NCBI GenBank assembly: GCA_963804725.1
Contig: CAWDRN010000016.1
Coordinates: forward strand, 108,844 to 172,843
Origin: an uncultured Alphaproteobacteria bacterium
GTDB lineage: Bacteria > Pseudomonadota > Alphaproteobacteria > ATCC43930 > CGMCC-115725
Reading direction: 5' to 3'
DNA: 64,000 nt
The notes below the pieces were generated by a model. That model was not told the DNA's origin, did not search any database, and saw only the letters and a list, made by a program, of their open reading frames with translations. Shown one piece after another: positions 15,206-38,658 of the stretch (positions within the stretch are counted from its first letter, which is position 1; every line of letters begins with the position of its first letter). The translations under genes and the position numbers were made by a program.

Positions 15206-15952
15206 TCAATCCTTTGAGATTTTTTTTGGCCGGGTCCGGCGCATGCTGTCGCCGGTAAGATCGATGCGATAGGCGTTGTGGACGAGGCGATCGAGGATGG
15301 CATCGGCGTAGGTTGGGTTACCGATGACATCATGCCATTTGTCGACCGGGATCTGGCTGGTGAGGATGGTTGAGCGGCGGGCGTATCGCTCTTCGAGGAT
15401 CTCGTAGAGATCGCGGCGTGCGTCGGCATCGAGTGGATCGAGACCCCAGTCATCAAGAATCAGCAACTCGACGGCGGTTAGGCTGCGCATGATGCGGGCA
15501 TAGCGGCCGTCGCCGCGCGCCAGCGCGAGATCGGCGAACAGCTTTGGCACGCGCTGGTAAAGGACGGAATGGTTGTCGCGGCAGGCCTTATGGCCGAGGG
15601 CACAGGCAAGCCAACTTTTGCCGATGCCGGTTGGACCGCACAGGATCAAATTGTGGTGCGTGACGATCCAATCGCTGTCGGCGAGCTTATGAAACAGCCC
15701 GCGATCGAGGCCCCGCGGGGACCGGTAATCGACATCCTCGATGACGGCGTGATGGCGCAATCGGGCATAGCGCAGCCTGGCGGCGAGGCGCTTGTCGCGG
15801 CGATGCGTGGTCTCGCGATCGACGAGCATGCCGAGCCAGTCGGCGTGGGTCAGGGTGGTGGCGTCGCCGGAGGCTTCGAGTTCGGCGAAGGCTTGAGCCA
15901 TGCCGGAAAGCCCGAGCTGGGCGAGCTGATCGAGTATCGGATGGGTCAGCAC
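15206..15952 (-). CDS. istB: IS21-family helper ATPase IstB
   Basis: Walker A GPTGIGKS, LLILDDWG and the typical 248-aa length. Confidence 0.9.
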   Translation of the reverse strand: MLTHPILDQLAQLGLSGMAQAFAELEASGDATTLTHADWLGMLVDRETTHRRDKRLAARLRYARLRHHAVIEDVDYRSPRGLDRGLFHKLADSDWIVTHHNLILCGPTGIGKSWLACALGHKACRDNHSVLYQRVPKLFADLALARGDGRYARIMRSLTAVELLILDDWGLDPLDADARRDLYEILEERYARRSTILTSQIPVDKWHDVIGNPTYADAILDRLVHNAYRIDLTGDSMRRTRPKKISKD

Positions 15953-15971: not shown

Positions 15972-16751
15972 TTAGTGGTAATAGCGGGGCCCGCGGATAT
16001 TGCGGTGGAGGACGGTGACGGCATCGGTTGGCTTCGGTTGCGCGGCGTGGCGATCGAGTTTGTTGTCGAGGATCGAGCGCACCGAGCCGTAGTTGAGCGT
16101 GCCGATCTCGATGGCGCGCTCGGCCGCGGCTTCGAGGCGGGCTGTGCCGAACGGTCGGACGAGGCGAATGATTCCGAGGCAGGAGCGAAAGCCCTGTTCG
16201 GGGTGTGGCCGGTGCTCGAGGATCAGCGCGCATAAGGCAGCGGTGGCGGGCCCGATCGCGGCGGCCTCGCGGCGAATGCGCTCAACCGTCCAGTCGGCAT
16301 AGCGGCGATGGCTCGACGGCATGTGGTCGGGTACCGTGGTGTGGTGGTGATTGCCGCTGGAGCGCAGATGCGTGGCGATCCGCTCGCCCTTCAGGAAGAT
16401 CTCGCCGGTGCGCGGTGTCAGGCGCACCGCGACTTCGCGGCGGGCATAGCGATAAGGCACGCTATAGAAGTGCGCCTCGACCGCGACGTGGTAATCGATG
16501 CCGACGCGGCGCAGCCGCCATTCGGCGAAGACGTAAGGCTCGCTGGGCAACGCCTTGAGGTGTGGCCGATCGAGTTCCTCGAGCAGCGCACGGCGGGTGA
16601 CGCCGAGCCGGCGGATCGGCCGCTCCTCGTTGAGCTGGCGCAGGAACTCGCCAATCGCCGCGTTGAGTTCCGCGAGGCTGTAGAAGCGGCGATGGCGCAG
16701 CCGGCCCAAAAGCCAACGTTCTACGACTAAAACCGCTAATTCTACCTTCGC
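15972..16751 (-). pseudogene. istA: IS21 transposase IstA, C-terminal half (gene split by the nested insertion)
   Basis: ..KAKVELAVLVVERWLL.. continues the N-terminal half, which ends ..PRRPRDK at 20061. Joining 16751 to 20061 restores GAC AAG GCG AAG (DKAK) in frame, giving about 516 aa in total. Confidence 0.85.
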
Positions 16752-16753
16752 TT

Positions 16754-17059
16754 TGGAGGCGGCCGTCAATTGCGGGTTGTGCGGGCACGACCAGTCGGAC
16801 GGTCCGGATCACGCATCCATTCCATCCGCTGGTAGGGTGTGAGTTTGTTCTGGTCTGTCGGCGCCTGGATTGGGGTGAAGACCGCGTCGTGTACCTCTCC
16901 GCCGAGGGCACGCTACGCTCGATTGCCGCCGGTCTGACGGACGTTGAGCCACCTGACGAATTCCAGCGCATAGCGGCTGGCCGTGCGGCGTTCCGCACGG
17001 CCGATCTCCACGAGCTCCACGCCATACTGGCACGGCTGGACGTTGCGGACGGTATGTAA
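16754..17059 (+). CDS. small conserved-looking ORF without a start codon in the integrated state
   Basis: Manual translation gives ..VRITHPFHPLVGCEFVLVCRRLDWGEDRVVYLSAEGTLRSIAAGLTDVEPPDEFQRIAAGRAAFRTADLHELHAILARLDVADGM*. There is no ATG/GTG/TTG upstream of the conserved-looking N-terminus, and the frame is open to the element's left end. Confidence 0.45.
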   Translation, partial: WRRPSIAGCAGTTSRTVRITHPFHPLVGCEFVLVCRRLDWGEDRVVYLSAEGTLRSIAAGLTDVEPPDEFQRIAAGRAAFRTADLHELHAILARLDVADGM

Positions 17060-17702: not shown

Positions 17703-17977
17703 TGGTACCGACGCGCACCGCACAGGACTACGAGATACTCCGCGCATCCGTGCTGAGTTCGGCGCCGCCCCGCGGTTCGGGAATCGGGACCGTCTGTCAT
17801 CAAGGTCTGGCGAACTGGCTCAAACAGCCGGTGTCGGAACCGGTCGCGCCGACGTGCGCATACCCGCACAACGTATCGCCTGCGGCCGGAGCTGGATCGA
17901 CTGGGAGCAGCACCGAACTGACTCGTGTCATTGCCGATATCGTGGTTGCACTTGCGCTGGAGCCAGAACATGTCTGA
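17702..17977 (+). CDS. small hypothetical protein, translationally coupled
   Basis: The ATG at 17702 overlaps the upstream stop, and its own stop overlaps the recombinase ATG at 17970. Confidence 0.45.
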   Translation: MVPTRTAQDYEILRASVLSSAPPRGSGIGTVCHQGLANWLKQPVSEPVAPTCAYPHNVSPAAGAGSTGSSTELTRVIADIVVALALEPEHV

Positions 17978-20051
17978 ACTCGTCAAGGTTACCGCCGAGC
18001 ATCTCAAGCGTGACGCCTATCTCTACATTCGGCAGTCGACCTTGCGCCAAGTGGCAGAGCATGGGGAGAGCACGCAGCGTCAGTACGCGCTGCGCGATCG
18101 GGCTCTTGTCGGCGGCTGGCCTATCGAGCGTATCCATGTCATCGACTGCGATCTCGGCAAGTCAGGCGCCAACGCAACCACGCGTGACGGGTTTCAGCGG
18201 CTGGTCAGCGAAGTCGCCCTTGGCAAAGCCGGTATCGTCATGGGGCTTGAAGTCTCTCGCCTTGCCCGTAACTCGGTCGATTGGCATCGGCTCATCGAGT
18301 TGTGTGCGCTGACATCCACGCTCATACTCGATGAAGAAGCAATTTACGATCCGGCGAGCTTTAACGATAGGCTGCTTTTGGGCCTAAAAGGCACGATGTC
18401 CGAAGCAGAGTTGCACATCCTCAAGGCGCGGATGCGTGGCGGCCAACTCAATAAGGCACGCCGAGGAGAACTCGAGATGCAACCGCCCGTTGGTCTCATC
18501 TATCGCAGCGATGGCGTCATAGATCTCGATCCTGATGCTGAAGTCCAAAGCGCGGTACGTCTTGTGTTCGATACCTTTGAGCGGACTGGAAGCGCTATGC
18601 AAACAGTGCGCTTCTTCCGGGACAAACGCATTCCATTCCCGACGCGGCTTCATGGTGGCCCCAGAAAAGGCGAGCTGATATGGGCGCCACCCCGGCATAG
18701 CCGCATACTGCGCATTCTGCATAACCCACGCTATGCGGGTGCCTTTGTCTATGGCCGGACCCGTACGCGTCACCTGCCGGCGGGTGGCTCCACCTCGGTT
18801 AGGGTGCCACGGGAAGACTGGCAGTTCTTCATGCCAGGACAGCATCGCGGATACATCGATTGGGATCGCTTCGAGAGCAATCAGCGGCGTTTGGCCGACA
18901 ATGCCCGAGCTTTTGGCGGCGAACGACGCTCAGGGCCAGCCCGAGAGGGCACCGCGTTGCTGCAAGGACGGGTTCTGTGTGGTCGGTGCGGTGAACGGAT
19001 GGGCATCCACTACCAACAGGAGCACGGTCAGAGCGTCCCAGTCTATGTCTGTCAAGAATCCCTGGTGCGTCGCGGTGGCAAGATCTGTCAATCGATCGCC
19101 GGGAAAGCCGTCGATGTGGCGGTCGGCGCGCTGCTCATCGAACTCATGACGCCGATGACGCTGGAAGTCACGCTCGCCGTGCAGCGAGAGCTGGAGGCGC
19201 GCGCCGCCGAGGTCGATGCCTTGCGCCAGCAGCATCTCGAGCGGACGCGCTACGAGGCAGAACTTGCCCGCCAGCGTTACATGCTCGTCGATCCGGGAAA
19301 CCGCCTCGTTGCCGACGCGCTTGAGGCGGAGTGGAACGACAAGCTACGTGTGCACACTGACGCAGTGGCTGAGTACGACAGATTCAACAATCAGCAAGCT
19401 TCCTCGCTCGATGCTGAAGCGCGCCGATGCATTCTGGAGCTCGCCGAACAGTTCCCAAAAATCTGGCATGATCCGCGTGTCGACATGCGCGAGCGCAAGC
19501 GCATCCTGCGTCTGTTGGTTGAAGATGTCACCTTGATCAAGGCAGAAGCGATCACAGCCCATGTCCGTTTGTCGGGTGGTGCTATCCGAACTCTGACGCT
19601 TGAGCGGCCCCGGCCTATCGCCCAAATCCGCAAGTTCAAGCCTGAACTGGTGGCAGAGGTCGACCAACTCCTTGATGATCACTGCGACCGGGAGATCGCT
19701 GAGATCCTGAACCAACGTGGGCGGTGTACCTGGGAGGGGAAGCCCTTCAACCTGAAAAAGATCGCGTTCATCCGGATGGCGTATCAGCTTGCTAGTCGTT
19801 ACACGCGGTTGCGCCGCCGTGGTTTGCTCACCACTCACGAGGTAGCTGAGCGCTTCGGCGTCGGTCGTACCGCAGTTCATCAATGGGGACGCGAGGGCCT
19901 CATCCAAAAATGCTATGCTGACAGCTTGCACCGCGGTCTCTGGAAGTTGCCGCCAGGTCAGACGATTCTCAAAGGCCGTGGCGGGCGGGCAGCGCGCCCA
20001 GCCCGATTGGCGCCCATTACCGTATCAAACCTCGAACAAGGTGCAGTATGA
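17970..20051 (+). CDS. large serine recombinase (resolvase domain, recombinase domain and zinc ribbon)
   Basis: AYLYIRQSTLRQ (catalytic Ser), GLEVSRLARN, LKGTMSEAELHILKARM and CGRCGERM...YVCQ...GKICQ zinc-ribbon cysteines; about 693 aa. Confidence 0.85.
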   Translation: MSELVKVTAEHLKRDAYLYIRQSTLRQVAEHGESTQRQYALRDRALVGGWPIERIHVIDCDLGKSGANATTRDGFQRLVSEVALGKAGIVMGLEVSRLARNSVDWHRLIELCALTSTLILDEEAIYDPASFNDRLLLGLKGTMSEAELHILKARMRGGQLNKARRGELEMQPPVGLIYRSDGVIDLDPDAEVQSAVRLVFDTFERTGSAMQTVRFFRDKRIPFPTRLHGGPRKGELIWAPPRHSRILRILHNPRYAGAFVYGRTRTRHLPAGGSTSVRVPREDWQFFMPGQHRGYIDWDRFESNQRRLADNARAFGGERRSGPAREGTALLQGRVLCGRCGERMGIHYQQEHGQSVPVYVCQESLVRRGGKICQSIAGKAVDVAVGALLIELMTPMTLEVTLAVQRELEARAAEVDALRQQHLERTRYEAELARQRYMLVDPGNRLVADALEAEWNDKLRVHTDAVAEYDRFNNQQASSLDAEARRCILELAEQFPKIWHDPRVDMRERKRILRLLVEDVTLIKAEAITAHVRLSGGAIRTLTLERPRPIAQIRKFKPELVAEVDQLLDDHCDREIAEILNQRGRCTWEGKPFNLKKIAFIRMAYQLASRYTRLRRRGLLTTHEVAERFGVGRTAVHQWGREGLIQKCYADSLHRGLWKLPPGQTILKGRGGRAARPARLAPITVSNLEQGAV

Positions 20052-20060
20052 AGCCATCGT

Positions 20061-20831
20061 CTTGTCCCGTGGGCGTCGTGGCCGCGCCGGGAGGATCGCA
20101 GCGATGCCGTAATGGGCCGCCATCTCGGCATAAGTGCGATTGACTTGCGGCTCGTAGAGGCACGCTTTGATCACGGCCACTTTGGTATTGTCGGGCACGA
20201 GCAGGTTTGGCACCCCACCGATCGCTTCCAGAGCACCGATATGAGCGGCGATCCAATCGCCGAGCTTCTGTGTCCAGGTCGCGTGGGCGTAGGTGAAGTT
20301 GGAGGCGCCCAACACCGCGACAAAAATTTGCGCTGGGCGAAACTCGCCCGTGAGCCGATCGATGATCACCGGGACCGTGTCGCCGGCGTAATCGACAAAC
20401 AGCTTGTCGCCGCCGGCGTGGCTTTGCCGCATCGTGACCGAAATCCGCGAGGCCCAACCACGGTACAGCTCACAAAACCGCGAATAGCGATACCCGTCCG
20501 GATGCCGCTCGATGTACTCGTCCCACAAGATCTGCAGCGTCACGTGCTTGCGCTTCAGTTCGTGATGAACCGCCGCCCAATCGGGCTCCGCGCGGCGGCG
20601 GTGGCCTTGCTTGGTGCCGACCGCCGTGAAGAGCTGCGCCTCCAGGGCGGCATCGGTTATCTCCGCCGCTAACGGCCAGCTCAGGCCGGCGGCGGCGAGC
20701 CGCTTCAACGTCAGCCGAACGGTCGATGGCGCAACCCCGACCCGGCGGGCGATCTCGTTGCCGGATACCCCGGCGGCCTTTAGCCGAAGCACATCGCGCA
20801 CTTGGCGCATTGCGATCCTCTCTGCTGGCAT
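20061..20831 (-). pseudogene. istA: IS21 transposase IstA, N-terminal half
   Basis: HTH (NEIARRVGVAPSTV) and the start of the DDE core (LFVDYAGD, ASNFTYAHATW). The frame runs into the inserted element after ..PRRPRDK. Confidence 0.85.
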
Positions 20832-22161: not shown

Positions 22162-22625
22162 TCATTTCGGGAATTTCTTGGGCGCCAAAACAACCGAGCC
22201 GGTCTCGAGGAGTGATTTGAGATTTGACAGAATCTGAGGCCAGCCGCCCGAGACGGCGTCGATAAACTTGGAGCCTTCAAGCTCTATGCTGTGGGTTACG
22301 GTTAGTTTCACCGCCTCACCGGCGGGCTCGAGCTCCAGGGTGCACAGAGACCAGCCCTCTGCCTTGAGTTCGGGCCTGAACTCGTTGCGCCAGCGAATGC
22401 CGAGACGGTGGAGGGCTCGAAGGCGACGATCTCGCCGGCATCGCCCACTCTGCCGTCGGGAAACATGAGCTTCCACGTTCCACCAATTTTCCAATCGGCA
22501 TCCGGGTAGGCCCCGAGCCAATACTGCCGCGCGAATTCCTGACTCGTCAGCGCGGACCACAAACGCTCCGGCGTTGTGCGGATGTAAGTGACGTAGATGA
22601 AGCTACTCTTGCCTGCGTTAGTCAT
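22162..22625 (-). pseudogene. SRPBCC / AHSA1-like protein with one frame break (or an assembly indel)
   Basis: N-terminal part (IYVTYIRTTPERLWSALT..GEIVAFEP) in ORF 22308..22625. C-terminal part (RLGIRWRNEF..GGWPQILSNLKSLLE) in ORF 22162..22560. The span is 464 nt, and one C appears to be missing from a C-run near 22405. Confidence 0.7.
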
Positions 22626-22941
22626 CGCTTTCTCCTTCCAGCTTCTTCTTCAGCGCGGACAGTGCGCTTAAGTGTCGGCGCTCAAATTTCCTGATCCAAC
22701 GTTCGGCGATCGCGTTGATCGGCACGGGATTGATAAAGTGCAGCTTTTCCCTGCCCTGCCGCTCCCAGGAGACGAGATTCGCCTCCTCCAGAACGGCGAG
22801 ATGCTTGGCGACTGCTTGGCGCGTCATCTCCAACCCCTCACAAAGCTCCCCCAGCGACTGACCATTCTTCCGGTGCAGTCGGTCGAGCAGCAGCCGGCGG
22901 CTTGCGTCAGCCAAAGCGTGAAATACAGCGTCGTCGTTCAT
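22618..22941 (-). CDS. ArsR/SmtB-family transcriptional regulator
   Basis: FHALADASRRLLLDRL, LGELCEGLEMTRQAVAKHLAVLEEANLV. Start MNDDAV. Its stop overlaps the SRPBCC start. Confidence 0.8.
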   Translation of the reverse strand: MNDDAVFHALADASRRLLLDRLHRKNGQSLGELCEGLEMTRQAVAKHLAVLEEANLVSWERQGREKLHFINPVPINAIAERWIRKFERRHLSALSALKKKLEGESDD

Positions 22942-22949
22942 GCAGGAAT

Positions 22950-22995
22950 ATGCAACCGTTCGGTTGCATGTAACTAGGCAACCTATAGGTTGCCT
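22950..22995. promoter_or_regulatory. two palindromic operator-like sites upstream of the ArsR gene
   Basis: ATGCAACCG-tt-CGGTTGCAT (22950-22969) and the perfect 20-bp palindrome AGGCAACCTATAGGTTGCCT (22976-22995). They share a GCAACC/GGTTGC core. Confidence 0.5.
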
Positions 22996-23004
22996 GTCAA
23001 GGAA

Positions 23005-23035
23005 AAAACGCCGCCCCCCAGGGGGCATAGCCGTA
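23005..23035 (-). terminator. possible intrinsic terminator (minus strand)
   Basis: The minus strand reads GCCCCctggGGGGC followed by ggcgTTTTTT. The stem is short, so this is tentative. Confidence 0.35.
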
Positions 23036-27517: not shown

Positions 27518-27548
27518 CCGCCGAACCCCCGGTGGCGGCGTTTTTTTT
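27518..27548 (+). terminator. intrinsic terminator-like hairpin with a T8 run and no plus-strand gene upstream
   Basis: CCGCC-gaacccccggt-GGCGG-cg-TTTTTTTT. Confidence 0.45.
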
Positions 27549-27589
27549 GTGGTGTCAATGCGGAACGAACCCAAGTAAGGAACTCAACG

Positions 27590-27845
27590 CCACTTTGTTA
27601 GTCCAATGGCAAGCGTCGTCGGAACGACAGCCGCCGCCCATGATGCGGCTGTCCGGTTTTCGGCATCTCGACTGCAAAGCGGACGGTCGCAAATCCACCC
27701 GCTGCGGACTTCTGAGCAGAGACTGACACGCTTGGGTGAACGTCCGCATTCGAGTGACGGCGAGGCGGCCTGGAACGACCACCATGGGCGCCGAGCGGCC
27801 GGTACCGCCGATGCTTTCGGCCGGTCTTATAGTACCTTGCACTGC
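27590..27845 (+). promoter_or_regulatory. structured leader R2, cobalamin-riboswitch-like and apparently complete
   Basis: Closing helix GCGTCGTCGG (27613-27622) with CCGCCGATGC (27805-27814), 9 of 10 pairs. Perfect 9-bp hairpin GACAGCCGC/GCGGCTGTC (27626-27653). GGTCGCAAATCC core and B12-box-like ATAGTACCTTGC. It points into the 3' end of the polymerase gene. Confidence 0.4.
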
Positions 27846-27866
27846 CTTCACGGTTACAGCCGCCCG

Positions 27867-30126
27867 CTACTCACGGGGTAGCAATGGCATAAAATCCGGC
27901 TGCGCCTCGAGCAGCAGGTTTTCGTCGATCGTTTCGAACTCGCTGCCGTCTCCGGCGATTTCGATAAGTCTGTCGAAATCAGCCGGTTTGTAGCCTTCGC
28001 TCTCTGCGAATGGCGAAGGAAGCAAAATAGGGTAAGTCACCAGGCAGCCGTCGTCATCGAGCCGGACGCGCATGGCGTCGCGTTTGCTCCGCCATTCGAA
28101 GCTCATCTGGCGCGTCTCGACTCTCCATCTTCCGGCTAGCGAAGGCTTGCCCCGGGCGAGTGCGAGCCGGCATCCGTAAAACACCCGGATCTTGACCGGG
28201 ACCGAGGGGATGAGCTGCCGGTCACGAAGCATATTTGCGATGGCGCTGGGCTGACGCAGCTTTGCGGTCCACTCAGCAAACATCCTTTGAAACTCAGGCA
28301 CGGCATCGCCGATGAACGAGCGCGGCGCGCCGCGCGATTTGAGCGATGCCTGTATCGGATGGCGACCAGTAAACGCCGGGCTGCGCTATGAAGAGATCGG
28401 GCCAGACTTTTTCTTCCCATTGTCCCAGGCCTTCGCCGATATCGAGCGACAACGGCCGGGTGCTGAATACCGCGTCGGTCGCCAGCATAACTATGGCTTC
28501 GGGATCCTGCCCGACGGCTTCGATGAGTCGCGCTCTGGTCATCGCAGTGACGAGCCCGGCCGCGACCACATCGTGATAGGGGCCGCGTCCGGTACGCTGC
28601 GCCATCTTGCCGTACAGCGAAGCCAATCCGAGCTTTAGCGGATAGCCGCGGGTTGCGGAACCGATCCGGCTGCGCTCGTCGTACAGCGCTGGCACCCAGT
28701 CAAACATCCGGCAATTACACTCGCACCGGGCGATCCACAAATCGCGGACCGCGATCATGTTGGTGCCGAGCCAGCGTCGGGCCGCTGCAATTTCGCATGA
28801 CCAGTACCAGCCGGTTCCTTGCACCGGCCAAAACAGGCCGCCATTATGCCGGAACGGCAGGCCGCACCATGGTCCGGCGGGGTGCGTGAAGGCGATTTTT
28901 GCGAGATAAAGCCCGCTCTCGGGCAAACGGCTGGCGCGCGGCCGGTGAAGCCATCGAGTATGCAGCGGGCACGGCAGCTCGGGCATTCCGGCGGGATAGG
29001 CGCTGTTTATGTCATATTGGTAAACCAGCCTGGCGAACGGACCGCCGATCGGTCCGATGCGCGACACTTCGGTACGGCCACCATAATAGGCGAAGTTGGC
29101 GGCGGCCTCGAATTCAGGATCGCGTTCCGGCCGGCGAACCCTTGCCGGGCTCCGGTTTTTGCCGGGCTGGCGTCCGGCAAGAGCCGCTGTCTCCTTCGCG
29201 GTGAGAGGACGCTTCGGTATACCGTGGTGATCCAGCAACGCTGCCGCGAGCCATCCTGCGCCGCTCCATTGCTTCGGCGAGATGCCTGCCGTGGTACAGA
29301 CCGTGCGGAATTCCGTCATCAGCATAGCCGCACAGCGGCATTCCAGCTTGCAGTATTCGATGATTTCCGGAGTCAGCTCGGAGAATTCGTCGCGATGCTC
29401 TTTGTTTCTGGTGATGAAGGCGCGTTCCTCTTCGCTGCCGATGTTCCATTTCTTGACCGCTTCCGTAAACGAGCACTGGAAAAAACCGAATGCCTCGTAA
29501 ACGGTTCGGGTTGAGCCTTTGATGATGCCCGGTCTCGGCTGGCTGCGATCGACGCGGGCGACCCGGAAATACTGGCCTTGCTGATAGATGAGCGCGTAGT
29601 CGCCCCAATAGGTATAGCACGGGCCGTTTTTGCCTTGCGGCGGGTCGAGTATCCGCTTCAAGGTCGGGATCTTGCTGATCCCGCGTAAGATCTGATTTGC
29701 GTCGTAGCCGAAGTAAAAGCCGATGAGTATCGGTTCGGCGGGAAGCGACAACAGGAATTCGAGACAATCGCGAACGGACAAGGGCTTGCCGTCGCAGTGC
29801 TTAACGTGTTCCTCGCCTGCGGTCGGTCCTGAAGCAGCCATCAACAAATAGGGTTGGCGTCCCAGGTGATCGGTTCCGGCGCCTTCGCCGTCGATCGCCA
29901 TAAACGGGCGAAGCTTCGTTCGGGCATGGTTGCGTTTGCGTTCCTTGGCAGCCTCGCGCTGCTCTGGGGTCTGCCGTTTACGCGCTTCCTGCTGGCGGAT
30001 ACGCGCTCGCTCACGCACACGCTGCCGCCGGAGTTCCAGAAGACACTGGTAATCTGCGCCGCGCGCCCGGATCATTTCGTCAATACGCGCTCTGATGACA
30101 CGATCGATCATCGCCGACACTTCCAT
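27867..30126 (-). pseudogene. family-B DNA polymerase (protein-primed / primer-independent-like) with one frame break (or an assembly indel)
   Basis: ExoI FMAIDGEG, ExoII FYFGYDANQIL, ExoIII EYCKLECRC, motif A YDINSAYPAG, motif B KLGLASLYGK, motif C LATDAVF, then LKSRGAP after a frame switch near 28340-28375. ORFs 28294..30126 and 27867..28301 join. The span is 2260 nt, one more than a multiple of 3. Confidence 0.75.
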
Positions 30127-30224
30127 CCCTGAGGGCTTATGGCTGCGGCTTCCGGCATCTGATACTCCTTACGCTCTCGCTCGCCGCCGGCTGCCGGCCC
30201 GCGTGCTGTAATAAAGTCTCCAGA

Positions 30225-30569
30225 TCATGCTGCGGTTCTTGCCGGTAAATGGGTCAGGCAGATCTGACGGAACGCTACCGGATAATCCAGAAGCACCTTC
30301 AGCAACTGGTCTTGCCGGCCGAGCGAAAGACTATTGAAGGCATCGCGATCGCGTTCGTTAAGCTTGAACCGGTAGTCCTGCCGTGCCCTGATTGCCGTGA
30401 GCCCGCGTTCTGCTTCCGTGGCCCGCCGGTTCGCACGCCGGCGTACTTCCGGCTTCTTCGTCCGGCCCGCCGTCGCCCGCGCCAGCACGGCCCGGCGCGC
30501 CAGCTCGGCTCTGTGCAATTGCGCATAGCGCTCGCTGCCAGGTCGAAAGGGGAACCGTTTCCGCGCCAT
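30225..30569 (-). CDS. small basic hypothetical protein immediately upstream of the polymerase
   Basis: 114-aa Arg/Lys-rich ORF in operon position between the SSB-like gene and PolB. I recognised no family. Confidence 0.4.
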   Translation of the reverse strand: MARKRFPFRPGSERYAQLHRAELARRAVLARATAGRTKKPEVRRRANRRATEAERGLTAIRARQDYRFKLNERDRDAFNSLSLGRQDQLLKVLLDYPVAFRQICLTHLPARTAA

Positions 30570-30720: not shown

Positions 30721-31195
30721 TCAGAACAGAATTTCGTCGCTGTCGAGATCGTCTTTCGGCGACGAGCGATCGGTCCGACCGTTCGATCGGCCGCCTTGTT
30801 CGGGCGCTGCTCCGACGCGGCGAGGCGATGCCTGCGCGGGCCCGCCGGCGGCGGCCGCGCGCATCGCGACCGCGCCCGGCATGACGCGGATGCCGCGCAC
30901 TTGCTCGCCACGAAAATTGACCCACACAGAATGAATGCGGATGGGCCGCCCGATCCAGGCATCCGTGTCGTCACCGAAGGCCTTGCGCAAGGCGTCGCGA
31001 TTGCCCTTGTTCAGGGGCAGCCTACGCTGCCGCGACCTCGCCGTTGCTGTCGCAAAGCTCGAGGACGAGCTTTTTTGCCGGATCGTCGCGGCCGATGGTT
31101 TCCGCCGAGACCGTGCTGATGACCCAGCTCTCGGGCTGATCGCCGAAATCGGCGGCGGTGAAGTAGGGCGAATTGTCGAAGTCACTTGCACGCAT
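30721..31195 (-). pseudogene. SSB-like small DNA-binding protein with an acidic C-terminal tail and one frame break (or an assembly indel)
   Basis: GGAG-ATG start at 31195 (MRASDFDNSPYF..KKLVLELCDSNGE). After a shift near 31022-31035 it reads ..LPLNKGNRDALRKAFGDDTDAWIGRPIRIHSVWVNFRGEQVRGIRVMP.. and ends DDLDSDEILF, which resembles the SSB tail DFDDDIPF. 475 nt. Confidence 0.5.
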
Positions 31196-31242
31196 CGACT
31201 TGCTCCTTTTGGTTGATGCTCCAAAAAATCCAAAGTCTTCTC

Positions 31243-31512
31243 TCAAGCGGCATCTTTCGGGCGCCGCCTGACAATGCAGCGCGAGCCGGCAGGCTCGGGA
31301 TCGGACAGGCGCAGTGCCGCCGGCGTCGCCTCAGCAAGCCTTCGGCCCACGGTTTCGACAATGTAAGTGCGCAGCAAGAAGCCGGCATATTCGCTTCGCG
31401 CCGCAATCGGCAGCTTGCCTTCACCGATCCAGATTGAAATACGAGCAACCGTAACGGCGAGGCGCTGTGCCGCCTCTTCGAGAGTCAGAAAACGCGGAAA
31501 ATCTTCGGTCAT
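31243..31512 (-). CDS. excisionase/MerR-type HTH protein
   Basis: FLTLEEAAQRLAVTVARISIWIGEGKLP. AGGAG lies about 12 nt upstream of the ATG at 31512. An alternative ATG at 31584 has no RBS. Confidence 0.55.
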   Translation of the reverse strand: MTEDFPRFLTLEEAAQRLAVTVARISIWIGEGKLPIAARSEYAGFLLRTYIVETVGRRLAEATPAALRLSDPEPAGSRCIVRRRPKDAA

Positions 31513-31660
31513 CGCGGGTGGGGTCTCCTCGACCCGCGAACGTATGCGAGTTTTTACCCTGCGTGGTGCATCGGTGGTGGTCATTTGGTAATTGACCGGT
31601 TGCGGGCGGCGGGGCAGGCTTCCATCGACAAAAAAGAGGCAGTGTTTTGGAGAGATCGTC

Positions 31661-32629
31661 GTGCGCCGGCCTAAGAAACCCAAACGGCTGAGCGAGGCCG
31701 CGCTCCTTGCTTTAACCGGGATTTCACACCGCAACCTAACGCGTCGGCGTCAGCAACGCTTGGTCAAGGCAGTGGAACCCCGCCGCGGTCGCGGACATGG
31801 TGGCGGGCGTGGCACCACACCGCTCGAATATTCGAGCGCGGAAGTGCCGAAAATCGAAGACCTGAAAAGATGGCGCCGAAAATTCAAGAACTCCATCGAG
31901 TGGCGATGGCGTCTGTCACGCGACGGTCACGACGTTGGGATCGCGCCCGATCTTGCCGAAACGCTAAAAGAAACGCTGAATTGGCTAAGAGAGGCATTGA
32001 AGAGGGAGGCGTTGAAGATCGAAACGCCCGCCGACGTCGATGCGATAACCGCGTGCCTTTGGAAGCCGGCGGATATGCCGCGCGGCAATCCGCTACGAAA
32101 AATCTTCAAGGGTCTTAATCCGAAAGAGGCGCGCGACCTGTTGACGATGCTCTTTTGCGTTGTTCTCGGCATCCGGCTGCCGCTGTTCGACGAGCCGAAC
32201 CCCTACCCATTTCAGGTTTTCAAGCGTGTCTTCGGACTGCCGAAAGAATGGCAAATGCCGCCGGGTCTCTTCGACGTTTTCCCTAACATGCACGACCAAA
32301 TTGTCACCGGGCTCTCCAAGGTCACCGCCGAAGAGTTGAAAAGCGCATGGAGAGTGTGCCGGTTTTTAGATCGCGTCCTCAGTGAGCCGGAGATTCCGAA
32401 GCGCGATGTCAAAGTCATCACCAGATCCGGCATTCCTTCACAGCCGATCAAGCTAGCCAGTTTGATGTGGTCGTCGCCGGTCACGCGCGCCGCGACCGTC
32501 GGCCTCATTATCTTCTGGCTGCGTGGGATCAAGTCTGCGCTTGGCAAAAACGACGCGGCTGTCCTCGACCGGTCTGTCGCTCCCATCTTCAAGTATGCCA
32601 CCTCTGGCGCAAGCACGACGGAATGCTAA
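31661..32629 (+). CDS. hypothetical protein with an N-terminal HTH-like segment, upstream of the Cas1 gene
   Basis: GGAGAG lies 6 nt before the GTG at 31661. RLSEAALLALTGISHRNLTRRRQ. No recognisable family. The stop overlaps or abuts the Cas1 start. Confidence 0.5.
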   Translation: MRRPKKPKRLSEAALLALTGISHRNLTRRRQQRLVKAVEPRRGRGHGGGRGTTPLEYSSAEVPKIEDLKRWRRKFKNSIEWRWRLSRDGHDVGIAPDLAETLKETLNWLREALKREALKIETPADVDAITACLWKPADMPRGNPLRKIFKGLNPKEARDLLTMLFCVVLGIRLPLFDEPNPYPFQVFKRVFGLPKEWQMPPGLFDVFPNMHDQIVTGLSKVTAEELKSAWRVCRFLDRVLSEPEIPKRDVKVITRSGIPSQPIKLASLMWSSPVTRAATVGLIIFWLRGIKSALGKNDAAVLDRSVAPIFKYATSGASTTEC

Positions 32630-32637
32630 GGCGCGCC

Positions 32638-34107
32638 ATGCACGCCGACAACACGATCTACACCCGCATCAAGAACGGCATCGTCGTCGTCAGCGGCACT
32701 GGTCCGGCGATCCATATCGACGGCAAACGCCTCGTCATCCGCGACGGGCCGCTCGAAACACCACCCTTGCGCCTAACGCGCGCGGAAGCCCATCGCCGGC
32801 TGCGGCATATCATCGTCGTCGGCGATTACGGCGGATACGTCAGCTTCGACGCGCTGCGCTGGCTGCGCGACGCCGGCGTAGGATTCTCACAGCTTGATTG
32901 GAACGGCACCGTCATCGCTACAAGCCCGAGCCCTGATTTGCCGGCACTGCGCAGGGCGCAGGTGCTGGCCTGCAGCGGTGCCATTCCGGGAGCCGTCAGC
33001 GCCATCACGCGCGAAATTTTGCGCGTCAAGCTTACCGGGCAAGCCCGAGTGGCGAAGATGCTCAGCTCGGTCGAAGGTATCACTCCAAAGCAATCACTCG
33101 CTGCGAGCGCTGCCATCGCCGAGCTCGCTGCGGAAGTAGCACGCGAAACGGACATCTCTCGGATGCTGATGTTCGAAGCTCATGCTGCGGGGTTTTACTG
33201 GCAGATCTGGGAAGATGTCCCCATCAGGTTCGCGCGGCGCAACCCGAAGCGTCTTGGGCCGGGCGGACGCTGGCAGCCGGGCCGGCCCGATCCATGGCTG
33301 GTATTCGGTCCAAGGGCGTCACTCCTGACCGGGCAACCCTACCGGGCGACAACGCCGGGAAATGCTGTCTTGAACTGGCTATATGCGATCTGTCAAACCG
33401 AACTGACGATTGCCCTTCTTACCGCCGGCATCGATCCTGGTATCGGGCTCTTTCATGTTGATATGCCAAACCGGCCGTCACTGGCTCTCGATGGTATCGA
33501 AGCGCTGCGGCCCTATGTCGATCTTTGGCTGTTCGGCTATCTCGTCAATTCGGTCTTTGCCAACCGCGACTTTACCGAGTTGCGCGATGGCGAGGTCCGG
33601 CTGACGCACCCGCTCAATGCACACCTTGCCCATACCGCGGCGCTGTGGCGTCAAGTGTGCGAGCCTGTCGCGGACTGGCTCAAAGAGAGCTTTATAGGCG
33701 CGGCAGAGACATCGCTTGCCTATACTCGGCGATCACTCAACCAGAGCAGCCTCTCTGGCGCTGGAGCAGTACTTCGCGAGGGGCGCAGCATAGTGTCGGC
33801 CGCCCAACCGCGGCACCGCGCAAGGGGGCAAGGCGTTGCCTCGCCCGAACGGTCGCGGCAACAGGGGCGTCCGGCGGTCTCGCCGCTAGCGCGGGTGCTG
33901 CCGACCCTGGCTTCTTCTTCGCGGCCGGCGCCGGGTTCGTGGGGGCCGAACCATTGGTTCGGCCGGCTCACGGATGAACCGGTTCCACGTATATGCCGTG
34001 AGTGCGGGCGCGCGATGCTGCGAATCCACCGCGTATTTTGCAGCCTTAAATGTGCTGTGTATAACTATCGAGCGCAGAACCGTTCCTCATCGGGCCAGGC
34101 CGAATAA
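32638..34107 (+). CDS. cas1: Cas1-family integrase (casposase-like, stand-alone)
   Basis: N-domain IIVVGDYGGYVSFDALRWLRDAGVGFSQLDWNG. Helical domain FEAHAAGFYW (Glu), PGNAVLNWLYAICQTEL (Asn), GIDPGIGLFHVDMPNRPSLALDGIEALRPYVD (His, Asp, Glu). This aligns with E. coli Cas1 E141/H208/D218/D221. The C-terminus has CRECG...FCSLKC cysteines. An alternative ATG is at 32623. Confidence 0.8.
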   Translation: MHADNTIYTRIKNGIVVVSGTGPAIHIDGKRLVIRDGPLETPPLRLTRAEAHRRLRHIIVVGDYGGYVSFDALRWLRDAGVGFSQLDWNGTVIATSPSPDLPALRRAQVLACSGAIPGAVSAITREILRVKLTGQARVAKMLSSVEGITPKQSLAASAAIAELAAEVARETDISRMLMFEAHAAGFYWQIWEDVPIRFARRNPKRLGPGGRWQPGRPDPWLVFGPRASLLTGQPYRATTPGNAVLNWLYAICQTELTIALLTAGIDPGIGLFHVDMPNRPSLALDGIEALRPYVDLWLFGYLVNSVFANRDFTELRDGEVRLTHPLNAHLAHTAALWRQVCEPVADWLKESFIGAAETSLAYTRRSLNQSSLSGAGAVLREGRSIVSAAQPRHRARGQGVASPERSRQQGRPAVSPLARVLPTLASSSRPAPGSWGPNHWFGRLTDEPVPRICRECGRAMLRIHRVFCSLKCAVYNYRAQNRSSSGQAE

Positions 34108-34124: not shown

Positions 34125-34214
34125 CCGGTTTGGGTGGTTTTGCGACGGTCCGCTGCCACGCTGCTGGCGAGAAAAGCCGACGTTCCGCCGATGGCTAGGA
34201 TTGGCCGAAAGCGG
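34125..34214 (-). promoter_or_regulatory. R3, a 5' fragment of the same structured leader family, cut off next to the Cas1 stop
   Basis: The minus strand reads CCGCTTTCGGCCAATCC..ATCGGCGGAACG..GCGGACCGTCGCAAAACCACCC. The last segment matches R2 GCGGACGGTCGCAAATCCACCC at 20 of 22 positions. The 3' half is absent. Confidence 0.35.
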
Positions 34215-34534: not shown

Positions 34535-35116
34535 CTAGGGAAGACAGGCACCGGCCAACTTTGCCCCGGATTCCGAGGACGGCAAGTATTTGAGGAACTT
34601 ACCCGTTCCGTCCATCACATAGATCAGGGACGAATGATCTATGAAATAGGTGCCGTCTGGCCCGTCGCGCCGTTGGTAATAGACGTCGAACTCCTTGGCG
34701 ACCTTCGCGGTGGCCGCCACGTCGCCCACCAAACCTTGGATGCGCGGGTCGAATGCCTTGACGTAGTTCGCCATCACTTTCGGCGTGTCGCGCGCCGGAT
34801 CGATGGAGATGAACAGCGGCACGACATTTTTCGCCGCTGGGCCAAGCTTTGCCATTGCTTGAGAGATGTTGTTGAGAGCGGTCGGGCATGCGTCCGGGCA
34901 ATAGGTGTAGCCGAAATAAATCAACATCGTCTTGCCGCGGTAAGTCTGATCGGTCACCGTCTCGCCAGTGTTGGCATCGGTCAACTTGAATGGCCCGCCA
35001 ATGTTGGGGGACGCGGCGGAGGGCAGCACCAGCCACACGACCGCAACTGTCGCGGCAATCGCCGCCAGCATGGCAATGGGTACCAGCAGAATGCTGTCCC
35101 GGAACTTTTCGGACAT
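34535..35116 (-). CDS. SCO1/SenC-family copper chaperone
   Basis: N-terminal membrane anchor, YFGYTYCPDACP (CxxxC) and FIDHSS motifs. Confidence 0.85.
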   Translation of the reverse strand: MSEKFRDSILLVPIAMLAAIAATVAVVWLVLPSAASPNIGGPFKLTDANTGETVTDQTYRGKTMLIYFGYTYCPDACPTALNNISQAMAKLGPAAKNVVPLFISIDPARDTPKVMANYVKAFDPRIQGLVGDVAATAKVAKEFDVYYQRRDGPDGTYFIDHSSLIYVMDGTGKFLKYLPSSESGAKLAGACLP

Positions 35117-36842: not shown

Positions 36843-36851
36843 GGGGCGGTC

Positions 36852-37202
36852 ATGCGAAAGCTGGTCCTGGCCTGTGCCGCGCTGGCGATTGCCGGCCCGG
36901 CGTGGGCGCACGCCTTTCTCGACCATTCGAGCCCGGCGGTGGGCGCCACCGTGCCGGCGCCGAAGGAGGTCTCGATCTGGTTCACCGAAGAGGTCGAACC
37001 AGCCTTCAGCCGCATCGAGGTCACCGACGGCGCCGGCAATCGGGTCGATGACGGCGGCACGCATATCGATGCCGCCGATCACGAGCTGTTGCACGTCGCG
37101 GTGAAGCCGCTATCGCCGGGAGCCTACAAGGTGACGTGGCACGTCGTGTCAGTGGATACGCACCATACCCAGGGCGATTTCACCTTCACCGTCGCGCCGT
37201 GA
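36852..37202 (+). CDS. copC: copper resistance protein CopC
   Basis: Signal peptide then HAFLDHSSP..; YKVTWHVVSVDTHHTQGDFTF. Confidence 0.85.
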   Translation: MRKLVLACAALAIAGPAWAHAFLDHSSPAVGATVPAPKEVSIWFTEEVEPAFSRIEVTDGAGNRVDDGGTHIDAADHELLHVAVKPLSPGAYKVTWHVVSVDTHHTQGDFTFTVAP

Positions 37203-38011
37203 ACCTGACGCTGGTCGCCATCCGCGCGGTCTACTTCTTCGCCGCCCTGCAATTGTTCGGTTGGCTCATCTTCGATTTGTTCATCGGACAAGCGGGGTGG
37301 GGACGGCGGGCGGCGCCACTGGCGGCCGTCGCCCTTGTGGCGATGACCGCGTGGCTGGCAATCGAGACGACGCTATTGAGCGGCGAGCCGCTTTCCGGCG
37401 AGACACTCGACATCGTGTTGCGTGAGACGCAGTTCGGCATGCTGTGGATTTGGCGCGCGGTGCTCCTCGTCGCTCTGTTAGCGTTGACCTTATGGCGGAT
37501 TCGGCCAGCGACGTTCGTTGCGGCGATCGGCGCCGCTTCGGTTCTAATCCTCACCGCGGCCGCCGGGCATGGCGGCGCCGACCGCAGCAGCATCCATTTG
37601 ACGGTAGACGCGATTCATCTGCTGGCCGTCGGCTCCTGGCTCGGCGGCCTCGTGCCGTTCGCCGCCGCGATGCGCCGGGCCGACGCCGGCGCAATCGCCT
37701 GGCGTTTCTCGACGTTGGGCGTGATCAGCGTTTGCGTCATCTTGGCAACGGGCGCGATCAACGCCTGGTTCATGGTCGGCAATATCCCGGCGCTGATCGG
37801 CACGCCGTACGGCCGACTGTTAATCGTCAAGATCGCATTGTTCTGCATCATGGTGTCTATCGCGGCGATCAATCGCTTTCGCCTGACGCCGCGCGGCGCT
37901 GTCGCGACGCTGTGCCGCAACGCGCAGATCGAGACGGCGCTCGGCGTCGCAATTGTGATGATCGTCGCCGCACTCGGCACCATGCCGCCCGCATATGGGG
38001 TACAGAATTGA
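37199..38011 (+). CDS. copD: copper resistance protein CopD (membrane)
   Basis: The GTG at 37199 overlaps the copC stop (GTGA). Multiple transmembrane segments, with HLLAVGSWLGGL and RFSTLG motifs. Confidence 0.8.
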   Translation: MNLTLVAIRAVYFFAALQLFGWLIFDLFIGQAGWGRRAAPLAAVALVAMTAWLAIETTLLSGEPLSGETLDIVLRETQFGMLWIWRAVLLVALLALTLWRIRPATFVAAIGAASVLILTAAAGHGGADRSSIHLTVDAIHLLAVGSWLGGLVPFAAAMRRADAGAIAWRFSTLGVISVCVILATGAINAWFMVGNIPALIGTPYGRLLIVKIALFCIMVSIAAINRFRLTPRGAVATLCRNAQIETALGVAIVMIVAALGTMPPAYGVQN

Positions 38012-38217
38012 CCCCGTATCACAGCCATCCGCGTCCGCAGGCGCGGTAATTGGCGCAGCCGGCACAAACGAGCCCGGCTACGCGCCCAGCGCAGGCGACA
38101 GCACTTCTTACGGCGCCAATTTCACAAGGCCGCAGCCTTCCACCCCGCGCTTCGCGGCCGCTTTGGAAACGAAATACCCAGCCGAGATACCGGCGCAACC
38201 GTAACGAGGAGACCATC

Positions 38218-38658
38218 ATGGTGAAGATCTTTTCGCCGACCGCGGCATTTGTAATCTGCCTCGCTTCCGCCGCGTTGGCACAAAGCGGACCGATCAGCGT
38301 CTCCGATGTCTGGGCCCGCGCCTCCAACGTCTCGACGGGCGCCGTTTATATGACCATCGCCAATTCGGGCGGCACGGACGATCGGTTGGTCGCCGCCCAA
38401 TCGCCGGTCGCGAAAACCGTGCAGCTCCATATTGAGACCAACGATAACGGCATCGTGAAAATGCGTCCCTTGAAGTCGATCGACGTCAAGGCAAACAGCA
38501 AGGCGACCTTGGCGCCAGGTGGCATGCATTTCATGTTGATCGGCCTTGTGCATCACTTGAAGGACGGCCAGAGTTTTCCACTGACGCTGACCTTCGAAAA
38601 CGTCGGCGAAATCCACGTGACCGTCACGGTGAAAAAGGCCGGCTCGATGGGCGGATGA
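38218..38658 (+). CDS. periplasmic copper chaperone PCu(A)C (DUF461)
   Basis: GAGGAG RBS, signal peptide, and the motifs VWARAS, GAVYMTIAN and GGMHFMLIGL. Confidence 0.8.
   Translation: MVKIFSPTAAFVICLASAALAQSGPISVSDVWARASNVSTGAVYMTIANSGGTDDRLVAAQSPVAKTVQLHIETNDNGIVKMRPLKSIDVKANSKATLAPGGMHFMLIGLVHHLKDGQSFPLTLTFENVGEIHVTVTVKKAGSMGG

Follow-up and report, generated by a model that had tools for sequence, protein, structure and literature searches.

A frame-broken family B DNA polymerase gene of a tectivirus-like clade in a probable alphaproteobacterial casposon remnant

To what kind of mobile element does a broken DNA polymerase gene belong when its motifs recall primer-independent enzymes and a cas1 gene lies close by? 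The question arises in a 64,000-nt stretch of contig CAWDRN010000016.1 (positions 108,844 to 172,843 of the forward strand; assembly GCA_963804725.1) from an uncultured Alphaproteobacteria bacterium, which we call the window. Casposons are transposons that integrate via a Cas1-type casposase and copy themselves with their own polymerase. We consider it very probable that the gene encodes the replicative family B polymerase (PolB) of a casposon, that this PolB falls in a tectivirus-like clade, and that the window copy was recently inactivated. The gene lies within a 6.5 kb casposon remnant, 2.3 kb from the Cas1 gene, and the remnant has a 23-nt inverted repeat at its edges.

The polymerase is encoded on the minus strand in two pieces. 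The 5' part (28294..30126), a 610-aa entry in the ORF list, runs from a basic extension through the exonuclease domain to motifs A, B and C, and its last 18 residues are an out-of-frame tail. The 3' part (27867..28347) lies in the +1 frame and comprises a KSRG element, the thumb or C-terminal domain and a conserved acidic tail (ENLLLEAQPDFMPLLPRE, 27870-27923), followed by the stop codon at 27867-27869. When one G is removed from the GG at 28348-28349, a 752-aa PolB results, and intact homologues of 745-775 aa (60-77% identity) cover 99-100% of it. Because the homologues begin at the residue matching M6, the true start is likely M6, at 30111. The window PolB matches Pfam family PF03175 (DNA_pol_B_2) with 33.4 bits, above the cut-off of 25.8, and PHROG 11768 (DNA polymerase) at 8e-39; most of its homologues have a precomputed PF03175 match. 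No NCBIfam model matched it, a PDB sequence search with the single protein returned nothing useful, and tblastn against the PLSDB plasmids gave no match. At the sequence level, the gene is confirmed as a family B DNA polymerase and not a chance pattern.

The first-pass annotation had credited the gene with all exonuclease and polymerase motifs, and we found every one in its place on the minus strand: ExoI DGE (29884-29892), ExoII FGYDANQIL (29686-29712), ExoIII YCKLE (29341-29355), motif A DINSAYP (28993-29013), motif B KLGLASLYGK (28606-28635) and motif C LATDA (28471-28485). KSRG follows in the +1 frame of the same strand (28329-28340), with 153 residues after it. Residues D79/E81, Y141/D142, Y258/E262, D372, K498/Y505/G506 and D551 are invariant in the family alignment, and K596, S597, R598 and G599 (KSRG) are invariant among 22 aligned sequences. 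Two deviations are family-wide: ExoIII reads YxxxE, not YxxxD, and the first Asp of motif C is missing, as had been noted for this copy. Motifs A and B are 126 residues apart, which fits a TPR1 insertion. Motifs B and C are separated by 53 residues, compared with 75-96 in the other PolBs compared, which suggests a much reduced TPR2 hairpin in the family.

The N-terminal extension described earlier, of about 75 basic residues, is likewise present. It is rich in Arg, Lys and Glu, spans residues 1-74 (29905..30126, minus strand) and includes a QTPEQRE motif. Arg and Lys make up 31% of it, compared with 12% of the remaining protein, and its pI is 11.6. The family consensus has between zero and three QTPEQ-like repeats. 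Three helices are predicted in the extension, and AlphaFold2 models helices over residues 2-70 at a pLDDT of 50-71.

Is the frame break real? The GG at the site (28348..28349, coding strand, minus) has one base more than intact homologues, three codons upstream of KSRG. A single break had been placed between 28340 and 28375; we find one break only, bounded by codons D591 and S594 (about 28341-28352), and any single-base deletion within these limits restores the frame. An identical break is present in the Logan contig L001, assembled independently from run ERR11523669. Outside the break, L001 differs from the window by four SNPs and one indel, and both SNPs within polB are synonymous. The break, found again in an independent assembly that disagrees with the window at five further positions, is probably real. 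The window PolB deviates at only 3 of 183 highly conserved positions, always conservatively, and judged by these columns the frame break is the sole lesion in the gene.

That the rest of the gene is so well preserved could also mean that sequencing or assembly introduced the break, and that the organism has a working, unbroken gene. The related loci come from long-read MAGs, where indels occur, and an indel of the window at 31029 is absent from the independent assembly, so the contig does carry indel differences; an error could moreover be common to both assemblies if they were built from the same reads. However, the site is a GG dinucleotide and not a homopolymer, the other chromosomal copies are plainly decayed, with deletions and multiple breaks, and the window element has neither canonical termini nor a target site duplication (TSD). 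The earlier suspicion of an assembly error is weakened by L001, and we regard an artefact as possible but unlikely. The recurrence of the break in two sequence variants, with a fully conserved downstream frame, would also suit a programmed +1 ribosomal frameshift controlling synthesis of the full-length polymerase, yet more than 100 homologues cross the site in one frame, other decayed copies are broken at other places, and GAT ACA GGC ATC has no slippery or stop-codon context. With no slippery site and no conserved break position in homologues, we rejected programmed frameshifting, whose probability we put close to nil.

We then turn to the genes around polB. Directly upstream lies a basic, conserved 114-aa ORF (30225..30569, minus strand), a candidate accessory or terminal protein; it has homologues upstream of polB in related loci L002-L005 and no Pfam, NCBIfam or PHROG match. 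A conserved 157-aa gene follows (30722..31195, minus strand); an extra C at 31029 breaks its frame in the window, L001 has it intact, and it weakly matches PHROGs without assigned function. Next is an excisionase/MerR-like helix-turn-helix (HTH) protein (31243..31734, minus strand), which weakly matches HTH_17, Rv2175c_wHTH and excisionase models, has a homologue in L002 and likely starts near 31584. On the plus strand, a conserved gene of about 345 aa (31592..32629), with a 58% identical homologue at the same position in L002, lies directly upstream of the gene for the casposase, a Cas1 homologue (32623..34107; 494 aa from M53 of the ORF). This Cas1 matches PF01867 at 4e-28 and also TIGR00287, retains its catalytic residues (E, H, D, E) and ends in a CxxC...CxxxC zinc ribbon. 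Pfam scans of neighbouring ORFs revealed no other cas gene, no repeat array was found in 26700-35300, and the window has no tRNA gene. Pfam, NCBIfam and PHROGs detected no HNH endonuclease in the element, and no fold could be assigned to its small ORFs. When these ORFs and the N-terminal extension were compared by BLASTP with the terminal proteins of phi29, PRD1 and Bam35 and with tectivirus neighbour genes, nothing significant emerged.

The arms of the 23-nt repeat lie at 27678..27700 (left) and 34132..34154 (right, 25 nt past the cas1 stop codon). They are complementary at 21 of 23 positions, and no better local inverted repeat joins the two flanks. The repeat was not found in related loci with up to six mismatches allowed. 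Several signs of a remnant can be seen at the window copy: its inverted repeat is just 23 nt long, no TSD adjoins it (the best candidate matches at 12 of 14 positions, which is chance level), the canonical terminal motif of intact relatives has one chance-level match in the window, at 52693, a second frameshift lies at 31029, and a nicO gene is truncated at the right edge. Where the element begins and ends is uncertain, because no TSD flanks the 23-nt repeat, which is also unlike the motif at the termini of intact relatives.

Related loci reveal what a complete element looks like. Cas1 adjoins this polymerase in 12 of 13 of them, among these six of seven genome loci, the contig of P0002 and all four further contigs, and two, L002 and L003, are intact casposons of 13-15 kb. 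L002 has 189-nt terminal inverted repeats (TIRs) that are 100% identical and a 14-bp TSD (GCCCCGAAGAACCT), while L003 has 79-nt TIRs (90% identical) and a TSD of 13-14 bp. The two have a common terminal motif, and their TIRs start CCCCCWGGGAGCACGTC. The 15 kb element of L002 carries GmrSD-like, methyltransferase and radical SAM genes as cargo. Like family 3 casposons, these elements insert between genes and have TIRs and a TSD of roughly 14 bp. A TSD is thus found in the relatives and absent from the window, so the family displays this casposon feature and the window copy does not. No plasmid-borne casposon was found by tblastn of Cas1 against plasmids, which returned distant CRISPR Cas1s only. 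We read the window copy as what remains of a recently inactivated element, and that element as a new casposon variant.

Where does this variant belong among known casposons? The best BLASTP matches of Cas1 are all casposon family 3, with 37.5% identity and an E-value of 8e-50 to AceAut-C1, which likewise has a C-terminal Cas1 zinc finger. In a neighbour-joining tree, bootstraps are 96.5% and 92%, the former for the new Cas1 sequences together with family 3, and in this analysis the window Cas1 nests in family 3, sister to AceAut-C1. The bacterial casposons of family 3 are AceAut-C1, HenMar-C1, NitAL212-C1 and StrAlb-C1 (Krupovic 2014, 2016); family 3 hosts were not found in the supplements of Kazlauskas 2020. 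HenMar-C1 has the matching divergent gene order, with polB, small ORFs and an HTH gene on one strand and a gene of about 350 aa plus cas1 on the other, and a 366-aa gene takes the place of the window's ~345-aa gene upstream of cas1. The polymerases differ: HenMar-C1 PolB has 1002 aa and the motifs DTET, FCDTDG and KRY, and no kinship with the window PolB is detectable (BLASTP E 0.001 over 59 aa; hhalign probability 5%). The S. noursei element also has a PolB of the HenMar type, unlike that of the window, so the contrast with family 3 polymerases rests on two known casposons, HenMar-C1 and S. noursei. We had assumed from Yutin 2018 that known family 3 PolBs are Toil-like; these two loci rule this out. 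The thaumarchaeal casposons of family 1 likewise combine a casposase with a PF03175-type PolB, but their Cas1 is only distantly related (E 1e-9) and their hosts are archaea.

The closest annotated relatives of the window PolB are found in viruses, namely the tectiviruses Toil, P19, WheeHeim, Forthebois and Badulia. PolBs of actinobacterial tectiviruses (Epsilontectivirus Toil, Deltatectivirus WheeHeim/Forthebois and the Microbacterium phage Badulia group) are 26-30% identical to it, at E-values of 1e-33 to 1e-50, and have in common with it PF03175, an [AE]TD[AG] motif C, K[TCS]RG, a YxxxE ExoIII and the short B-C spacing. Structure agrees. The AlphaFold2 model (pLDDT 75.7) has its best BFVD matches in the WheeHeim and Toil PolBs (E 4e-34 and 2e-32, TM 0.70-0.78), and its third-best structural match is the PolB of His1 virus (E 5e-23), which has been placed as sister to family 1 casposon PolBs (PMC4046053). 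Its best PDB match is phi29 DNA polymerase (E 1e-13, TM to target 0.53-0.57), which appears to share its division into exonuclease, palm, TPR1-sized insertion, fingers and thumb but differs in its YCDTDS and KxY motifs and in a B-C spacing of 75 residues, not 53. In hhalign, the family profile matches tectivirus PolBs at 3.7e-72, piPolBs (primer-independent PolBs) at 3.7e-16 and the phi29/PRD1/Bam35 set at 1.1e-12. These comparisons put the window PolB and the PolBs of actinobacterial tectiviruses in one clade of the protein-primed/primer-independent PolB supergroup, with the window PolB apparently about as distant from piPolBs as from classical protein-primed polymerases. The clade has at least 2,169 clusters (50% identity, E ≤ 1e-30), with ATD[AG] as motif C and K[TS]RG.

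With nearest annotated and structural relatives of this kind, the gene could be the polymerase of a degraded Toil-like tectivirus prophage and not of a transposon. There is a precedent, in that 'casposons' of Streptomyces were re-read as Toil-like proviruses (Yutin 2018, PMC5894146). The S. noursei PolB, though, is of the HenMar type and not the window type. Tectivirus PolB genes sit in linear virus genomes of 15-18 kb with capsid and packaging genes and no Cas1; Pfam, which divergent capsids can escape, found neither a double jelly-roll capsid protein nor an FtsK/HerA packaging ATPase when ORFs of the window's element and of L002 were scanned, and the cargo of L002 is that given above. The tectivirus hosts are Actinobacteria, in contrast to Alphaproteobacteria here, and tectivirus PolBs have neither the QTPEQRE extension nor an LLEAxPDF tail. 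TSDs of 13-14 bp and linkage to Cas1 are casposon hallmarks, and we hold a tectivirus prophage to be highly improbable. The first-pass annotation had treated a phage-type protein-primed PolB as something unrelated to Cas1 elements; here a phage-like PolB sits inside them.

The KSRG element had been taken as a hint that the enzyme belongs to the piPolB clade. KSRG does correspond to the piPolB KTRG, with which hhalign puts it in register, and the exact letters KTRG occur in most of the distant clade members (76 of 148 representatives). Like the piPolBs of Redrejo-Rodriguez 2017, the window PolB has lost the first motif C Asp, a piPolB hallmark (PMC5695915; compare their SxTTDG), has K[TS]RG in place of KxY and can be aligned C-terminal of this motif. 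The hhalign score against piPolBs (FAM-PIP, 140) is even slightly above that against protein-primed enzymes (FAM-PP, 106). All this would fit the primer-independent PolB of a pipolin, but membership fails on several counts. The tectivirus PolBs are far closer, as the E-values above demonstrate, and the family forms a profile cluster of its own. The KH of the piPolB signature KH-X8-KTRG, which includes the invariant Lys required for priming, is absent from the family, whose consensus before the motif is VYWSPSxLxxSVKSRG, and motif C has Ala (LATDA) where piPolBs have Thr. The protein has about 750 aa, compared with 1007-1146 aa for the piPolBs we fetched, and it matches PF03175, whereas the S. 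epidermidis piPolB matches no Pfam family. Pipolins have a tyrosine recombinase, direct repeats and often a tRNA gene; between the inverted repeats here there is neither a tyrosine recombinase nor a direct-repeat att structure, and the element family has Cas1, TIRs and 14-bp TSDs instead. Plasmids hold piPolBs, yet the tblastn search of plasmids came back empty. A pipolin is therefore very unlikely.

Taking the gene as a casposon polymerase, we can propose how the element would work and how this copy died. In intact relatives, Cas1 would insert the 13-15 kb element between long TIRs with a 13-14-bp target duplication, and the polymerase would then copy the inserted element. Our preferred reading is that replication would start at the ends, from the inverted repeats. 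Protein priming, possibly through the basic N-terminal extension or the small upstream ORF, could as readily prove right as wrong; de novo, piPolB-like priming is possible but doubtful, and priming by a host primase appears less likely still. In the window, the extra base would leave a 610-aa product without the primer-terminus-binding strand or any of the thumb or C-terminal domain, and such a product should be unable to sustain synthesis. What is left of the element is a 6.5 kb core of polB, three small genes, the ~345-aa gene and cas1.

The window copy itself is only a dead remnant, and it leads to what is apparently a large, undescribed casposon lineage. It has been proposed that the CRISPR adaptation machinery descends from casposons. 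Casposon families have been defined by matched Cas1 and PolB types, and in the accessible literature bacterial casposons have family 2/3 polymerases only and protein-primed-type PolBs occur in thaumarchaeal family 1 only. Here a family 3 casposase is combined with a tectivirus-like PolB, in many alphaproteobacterial genomes and with fresh insertions, which suggests that the casposon polymerase module was swapped with viruses at least once beyond current descriptions. More speculatively, and with the balance against it, these elements could be a fifth casposon kind, widespread in soil Alphaproteobacteria, pairing a family 3 casposase with a PolB taken from or donated to tectivirus-like elements, and their clade could be a second, much larger primer-independent branch. 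If so, these transposons, and perhaps Toil-like tectiviruses, would initiate their replication de novo, at the inverted repeats and with no need of a terminal protein. The piPolB hallmarks, K[TS]RG and loss of the first motif C Asp, are shared by a far larger clade, with cultured tectiviruses among its members. Either the hallmarks do not set primer independence, or primer-independent PolBs may be much commoner than thought.

The family B DNA polymerase (PolB) gene of the window lies on the minus strand at 27867-30126. Its ORF (28294..30126) encodes 610 aa, after which the +1 frame is open to a stop codon at 27867-27869. At the break, frame A ends in VYWSPSDTGIAQIARRAALVHRRCRA followed by a stop, and frame C reads ASLKSRGAPRSFIGDAVPEF. 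Deleting one G from the GG at 28348-28349 restores a 752-aa PolB, in agreement with the first-pass annotation, which had described a single break removable in this way. The exonuclease and polymerase motifs it listed were all found in place, with a Glu at the usual Asp position of ExoIII (YCKLE), and the basic N-terminal extension was borne out (residues 1-74 are 31% Arg+Lys, pI 11.6). The product matches PF03175 above the Pfam threshold (33.4 bits versus 25.8) and the DNA polymerase family PHROG 11768 (8e-39). A protein search returned 390 relatives, including dozens of intact homologues of 745-775 aa with 60-77% identity over 99-100% of the repaired protein. Across a 22-sequence alignment, K596, S597, R598 and G599 are invariant, as are D79/E81, Y141/D142, Y258/E262, D372, K498 and D551. 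Because intact full-length homologues exist and KSRG is invariant, the window gene is frameshifted relative to its family. The same alignment shows a conserved acidic and hydrophobic C-terminal tail, LLEA(M/Q)PDFxPxLPxE (27870-27923, minus strand). It is predicted by AlphaFold2 to be disordered and may be a site where a partner protein docks.

The break sits in a short variable loop directly before KSRG. The first-pass annotation had raised an assembly error. However, a Logan contig from sequencing run ERR11523669 (L001) encodes an identical 605-aa truncated product, while differing from the window at five other positions over 3.58 kb. These are four substitutions, two of them in polB and both synonymous, and one indel, none at the break. 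The indel is a second frameshift: the conserved 157-aa casposon gene (30722-31195, minus strand) is intact in L001 and split in the window by an extra C at 31029 (ORFs 31022..31246 and 30721..31233). Since the two assemblies disagree elsewhere, they are independent enough, yet both carry the polB break. A systematic error common to both is a less likely account. The site is a GG dinucleotide and not a homopolymer. A programmed frameshift is unlikely because PolB homologues read straight across the site, other decayed polB copies are broken at other places, and there is no slippery context. From these comparisons, we consider it quite likely that the break is a real, recent mutation. Apart from it, the window PolB agrees with the consensus at all but 3 of the 183 columns with ≥95% conservation; the three substitutions are conservative, and their number is within the range of intact homologues. 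The 610-aa product lacks the KSRG strand and the C-terminal domain and would be inactive, and the window copy is probably a dead gene.

The polymerase gene belongs to a casposon remnant. ORF 32467..34107 encodes a Cas1 homologue (PF01867, 4e-28; TIGR00287), with a likely start at 32623 giving 494 aa. Its catalytic E, H, D and E are conserved and a CxxC...CxxxC zinc ribbon lies at its C-terminus. Four conserved genes separate polB from cas1: a basic 114-aa ORF, the 157-aa gene, a weak HTH protein and a gene of ~345 aa directly upstream of cas1. A 23-nt inverted repeat (21/23 complementary) encloses exactly the polB-to-cas1 module, its left arm 167 nt past the polB stop and its right arm 25 nt past the cas1 stop. 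The element is reduced to a 6.5-kb core with two frameshifted genes, and neither the canonical terminal motif of intact relatives nor a target-site duplication was found for it. The N-terminal part of a nicO gene for a nickel transporter (NicO/HoxN; 34155-34460, minus strand; PF03824, 8.5e-20, profile positions 2-52 of 287) stops exactly at the right inverted repeat; the remainder of the gene is missing from the other side of the element.

The left flank (15206-23028) is rich in mobile-element genes, namely IS21 istB (15206..15952), a Mu-transposase-C/istA fragment (15972..16769), a 708-aa large serine recombinase (17925..20051) and an rve-integrase fragment (20025..20831), and also holds an ArsR regulator (22618..23028). 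Between a lipoprotein gene and the left inverted repeat is a strong terminator-like hairpin, CCGCCGAACCCCCGGTGGCGG, followed by T8 (27517-27547, plus strand), with no plus-strand gene upstream. To the right lies a copper-handling cluster (34535-38658) with SCO1/SenC (34535..35116), CopD (37136..38011) and PCuAC (38050..38658).

We placed the window Cas1 using the alignment in the supplement of Krupovic et al. 2014. Its best BLASTP match was the family 3 casposon AceAut-C1 (37.5% identity, 8e-50), whose Cas1 likewise bears a zinc finger at its C-terminus. Identities to other family 3 members were 34% (Saccharopolyspora), 30% (StrAlb-C1), 28% (NitAL212-C1) and 26% (HenMar-C1), and matches to families 2 and 1 reached 1e-19 to 1e-21 and 1e-9, respectively. 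The new Cas1s group together in a neighbour-joining tree (100% bootstrap), and their clade lies inside family 3 (96.5%), sister to AceAut-C1 (92%).

When one genome per species was scanned, a related PolB turned up at seven loci, each in a MAG of an uncultured alphaproteobacterium or proteobacterium, and Cas1 adjoins PolB at six of them. Cas1 also lies within 5 kb of PolB on the contig of one intact homologue (P0002) and on four more contigs, so that 12 of 13 loci show the linkage. At two loci the casposon is intact and recently inserted. The L002 element (809-15873; 15,065 bp) has 189-nt perfect terminal inverted repeats (TIRs) and a 14-bp flanking direct repeat, GCCCCGAAGAACCT. The L003 element (3232-16444) has 79-nt TIRs of 90% identity and a 13-14-bp flanking duplication, (G)TCAGCTATGAGAC. 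Both share the terminal sequence CCCCCWGGGAGCACGTC. Among the cargo genes of L002 are a GmrSD-like restriction gene, present as two ORFs, and genes for a SAM methyltransferase and a radical SAM protein; neither capsid nor packaging genes were detected in it by Pfam. At other loci, PolB and Cas1 are each in several pieces (L004, L005) or split in two (L006), PolB has an internal deletion (L007), or only its C-terminal fragment is kept (L008). The state of the window copy is in line with this series of decaying chromosomal casposons. Layout varies within the family (L023 10347-10724; L025 10276-11940; L006 12690-13666): one of these three relatives has an SSB gene (PF00436) directly 3' of polB, and the two others have a same-strand rather than divergent cas1 downstream of it.

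What kind of polymerase do these elements carry? In the phage collection, the only annotated relatives were the actinobacterial tectiviruses Toil, P19, WheeHeim, Forthebois and RickRoss and those of the Badulia group (26-30% identity, E 1e-33 to 1e-50). The AlphaFold2 model (pLDDT 75.7, pTM 0.71) best matched WheeHeim (E 4e-34) and Toil (2e-32) in BFVD, with TM 0.70-0.78, followed by His1 virus, ABV2, a tectivirus and GA-1; in the PDB, phi29 DNA polymerase came first (E 1e-13) ahead of archaeal PolBs (1e-8).

KSRG had been read as a hint of primer-independent PolBs (piPolBs). This reading holds for the motif but not for clade membership. By hhalign, KSRG is in register with piPolB KTRG and the alignment runs on through the C-terminal domain. 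Motif C and the KxY position read YCDTDS and KxY in phi29, PRD1 and Bam35; xTTDG and KH-x9-KTRG in piPolBs (S. epidermidis pSE-12228-03, Pseudosulfitobacter); VETDG and KTRG in Toil; FETDA and KCRG in Badulia; VATDG and KSRG in WheeHeim; and LATDA and KSRG in the window family. The family profile, run in a full HMMER scan, gave 6,953 clusters (50% identity) at E ≤ 1e-3 and 2,169 at E ≤ 1e-30. In a set of 148 distant clade representatives, 62 carry ATDG and 59 ATDA as motif C, 76 have KTRG and 26 KSRG at the KxY position, and 138 have YxxxE as ExoIII. In hhalign profile comparisons, the window family aligned with tectivirus PolBs at E 3.7e-72, with piPolBs at 3.7e-16 and with phi29/PRD1/Bam35 at 1.1e-12; tectivirus PolBs matched the latter two groups at 1.8e-14 and 4.3e-16, and those two matched each other at 6e-14. 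By these profiles, the window clade is roughly equidistant from piPolBs and phi29/PRD1/Bam35. The family also lacks the piPolB KH motif, whose lysine is required for priming (PMC5695915), and we therefore rejected the window PolB as a piPolB family member. The piPolB-like motifs also occur in polymerases of viruses with linear genomes and inverted terminal repeats, for which protein-primed replication is usually assumed (PMC6950372). The Pseudosulfitobacter piPolB served as a reference sequence only; on its plasmid (L013 1818-7362), this alphaproteobacterial gene lies beside a site-specific integrase and is interrupted by an IS66 element.

Two known family 3 elements encode different polymerases. 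The 1002-aa HenMar-C1 PolB has the motifs DTET, DFLSMYP, FCDTDG and KRY, matches only PF00136, below threshold, and shows no detectable relation to the window PolB (BLASTP E 0.001 over 59 aa; hhalign probability 5%). In the S. noursei element, a StrAlb-C1 relative, the PolB N-terminus (268 residues inside L021 1-805) is of HenMar type, and tblastn of the window, Toil or WheeHeim PolB against the locus of this element gave no match. Polymerases of Streptomyces Cas1-encoding 'Toil-like' proviruses have been described as embedded among Toil-like viruses (Yutin 2018, PMC5894146), with which the visible S. noursei N-terminus contrasts. HenMar-C1 has the same gene order as the window element: one strand carries polB, the small ORFs and the HTH gene, the other a ~350-aa gene and cas1. 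Because a family 3 Cas1 and this order accompany an unrelated PolB, the window lineage looks like a family 3 backbone whose polymerase gene was replaced.

The polymerase would replicate the casposon after Cas1-mediated excision or integration, and we favour initiation at the ends, from the long perfect TIRs. Priming by protein is an even prospect. Candidate terminal proteins are the basic helical N-terminal extension, which is conserved and in whose QTPEQRE motif the Thr is nearly invariant, and the basic 114-aa product encoded upstream of polB; BLASTP against those of phi29, PRD1 and Bam35 found no homology for either. De novo priming, as in piPolBs, is possible but doubtful, and priming by host primase is less likely again. 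Motifs B and C are 53 residues apart, versus 75-96 in classical pPolBs, and this short spacing suggests a reduced TPR2 subdomain.

Our literature search found no paper on bacterial casposons with a PF03175-type PolB. The combination of a family 3 casposase with a tectivirus-like PolB bearing piPolB-like active-site changes is apparently an undescribed casposon variant. The value of the window copy is as a pointer to this variant, which is widespread in alphaproteobacterial MAGs and whose intact, recently mobile members offer material for experiments.
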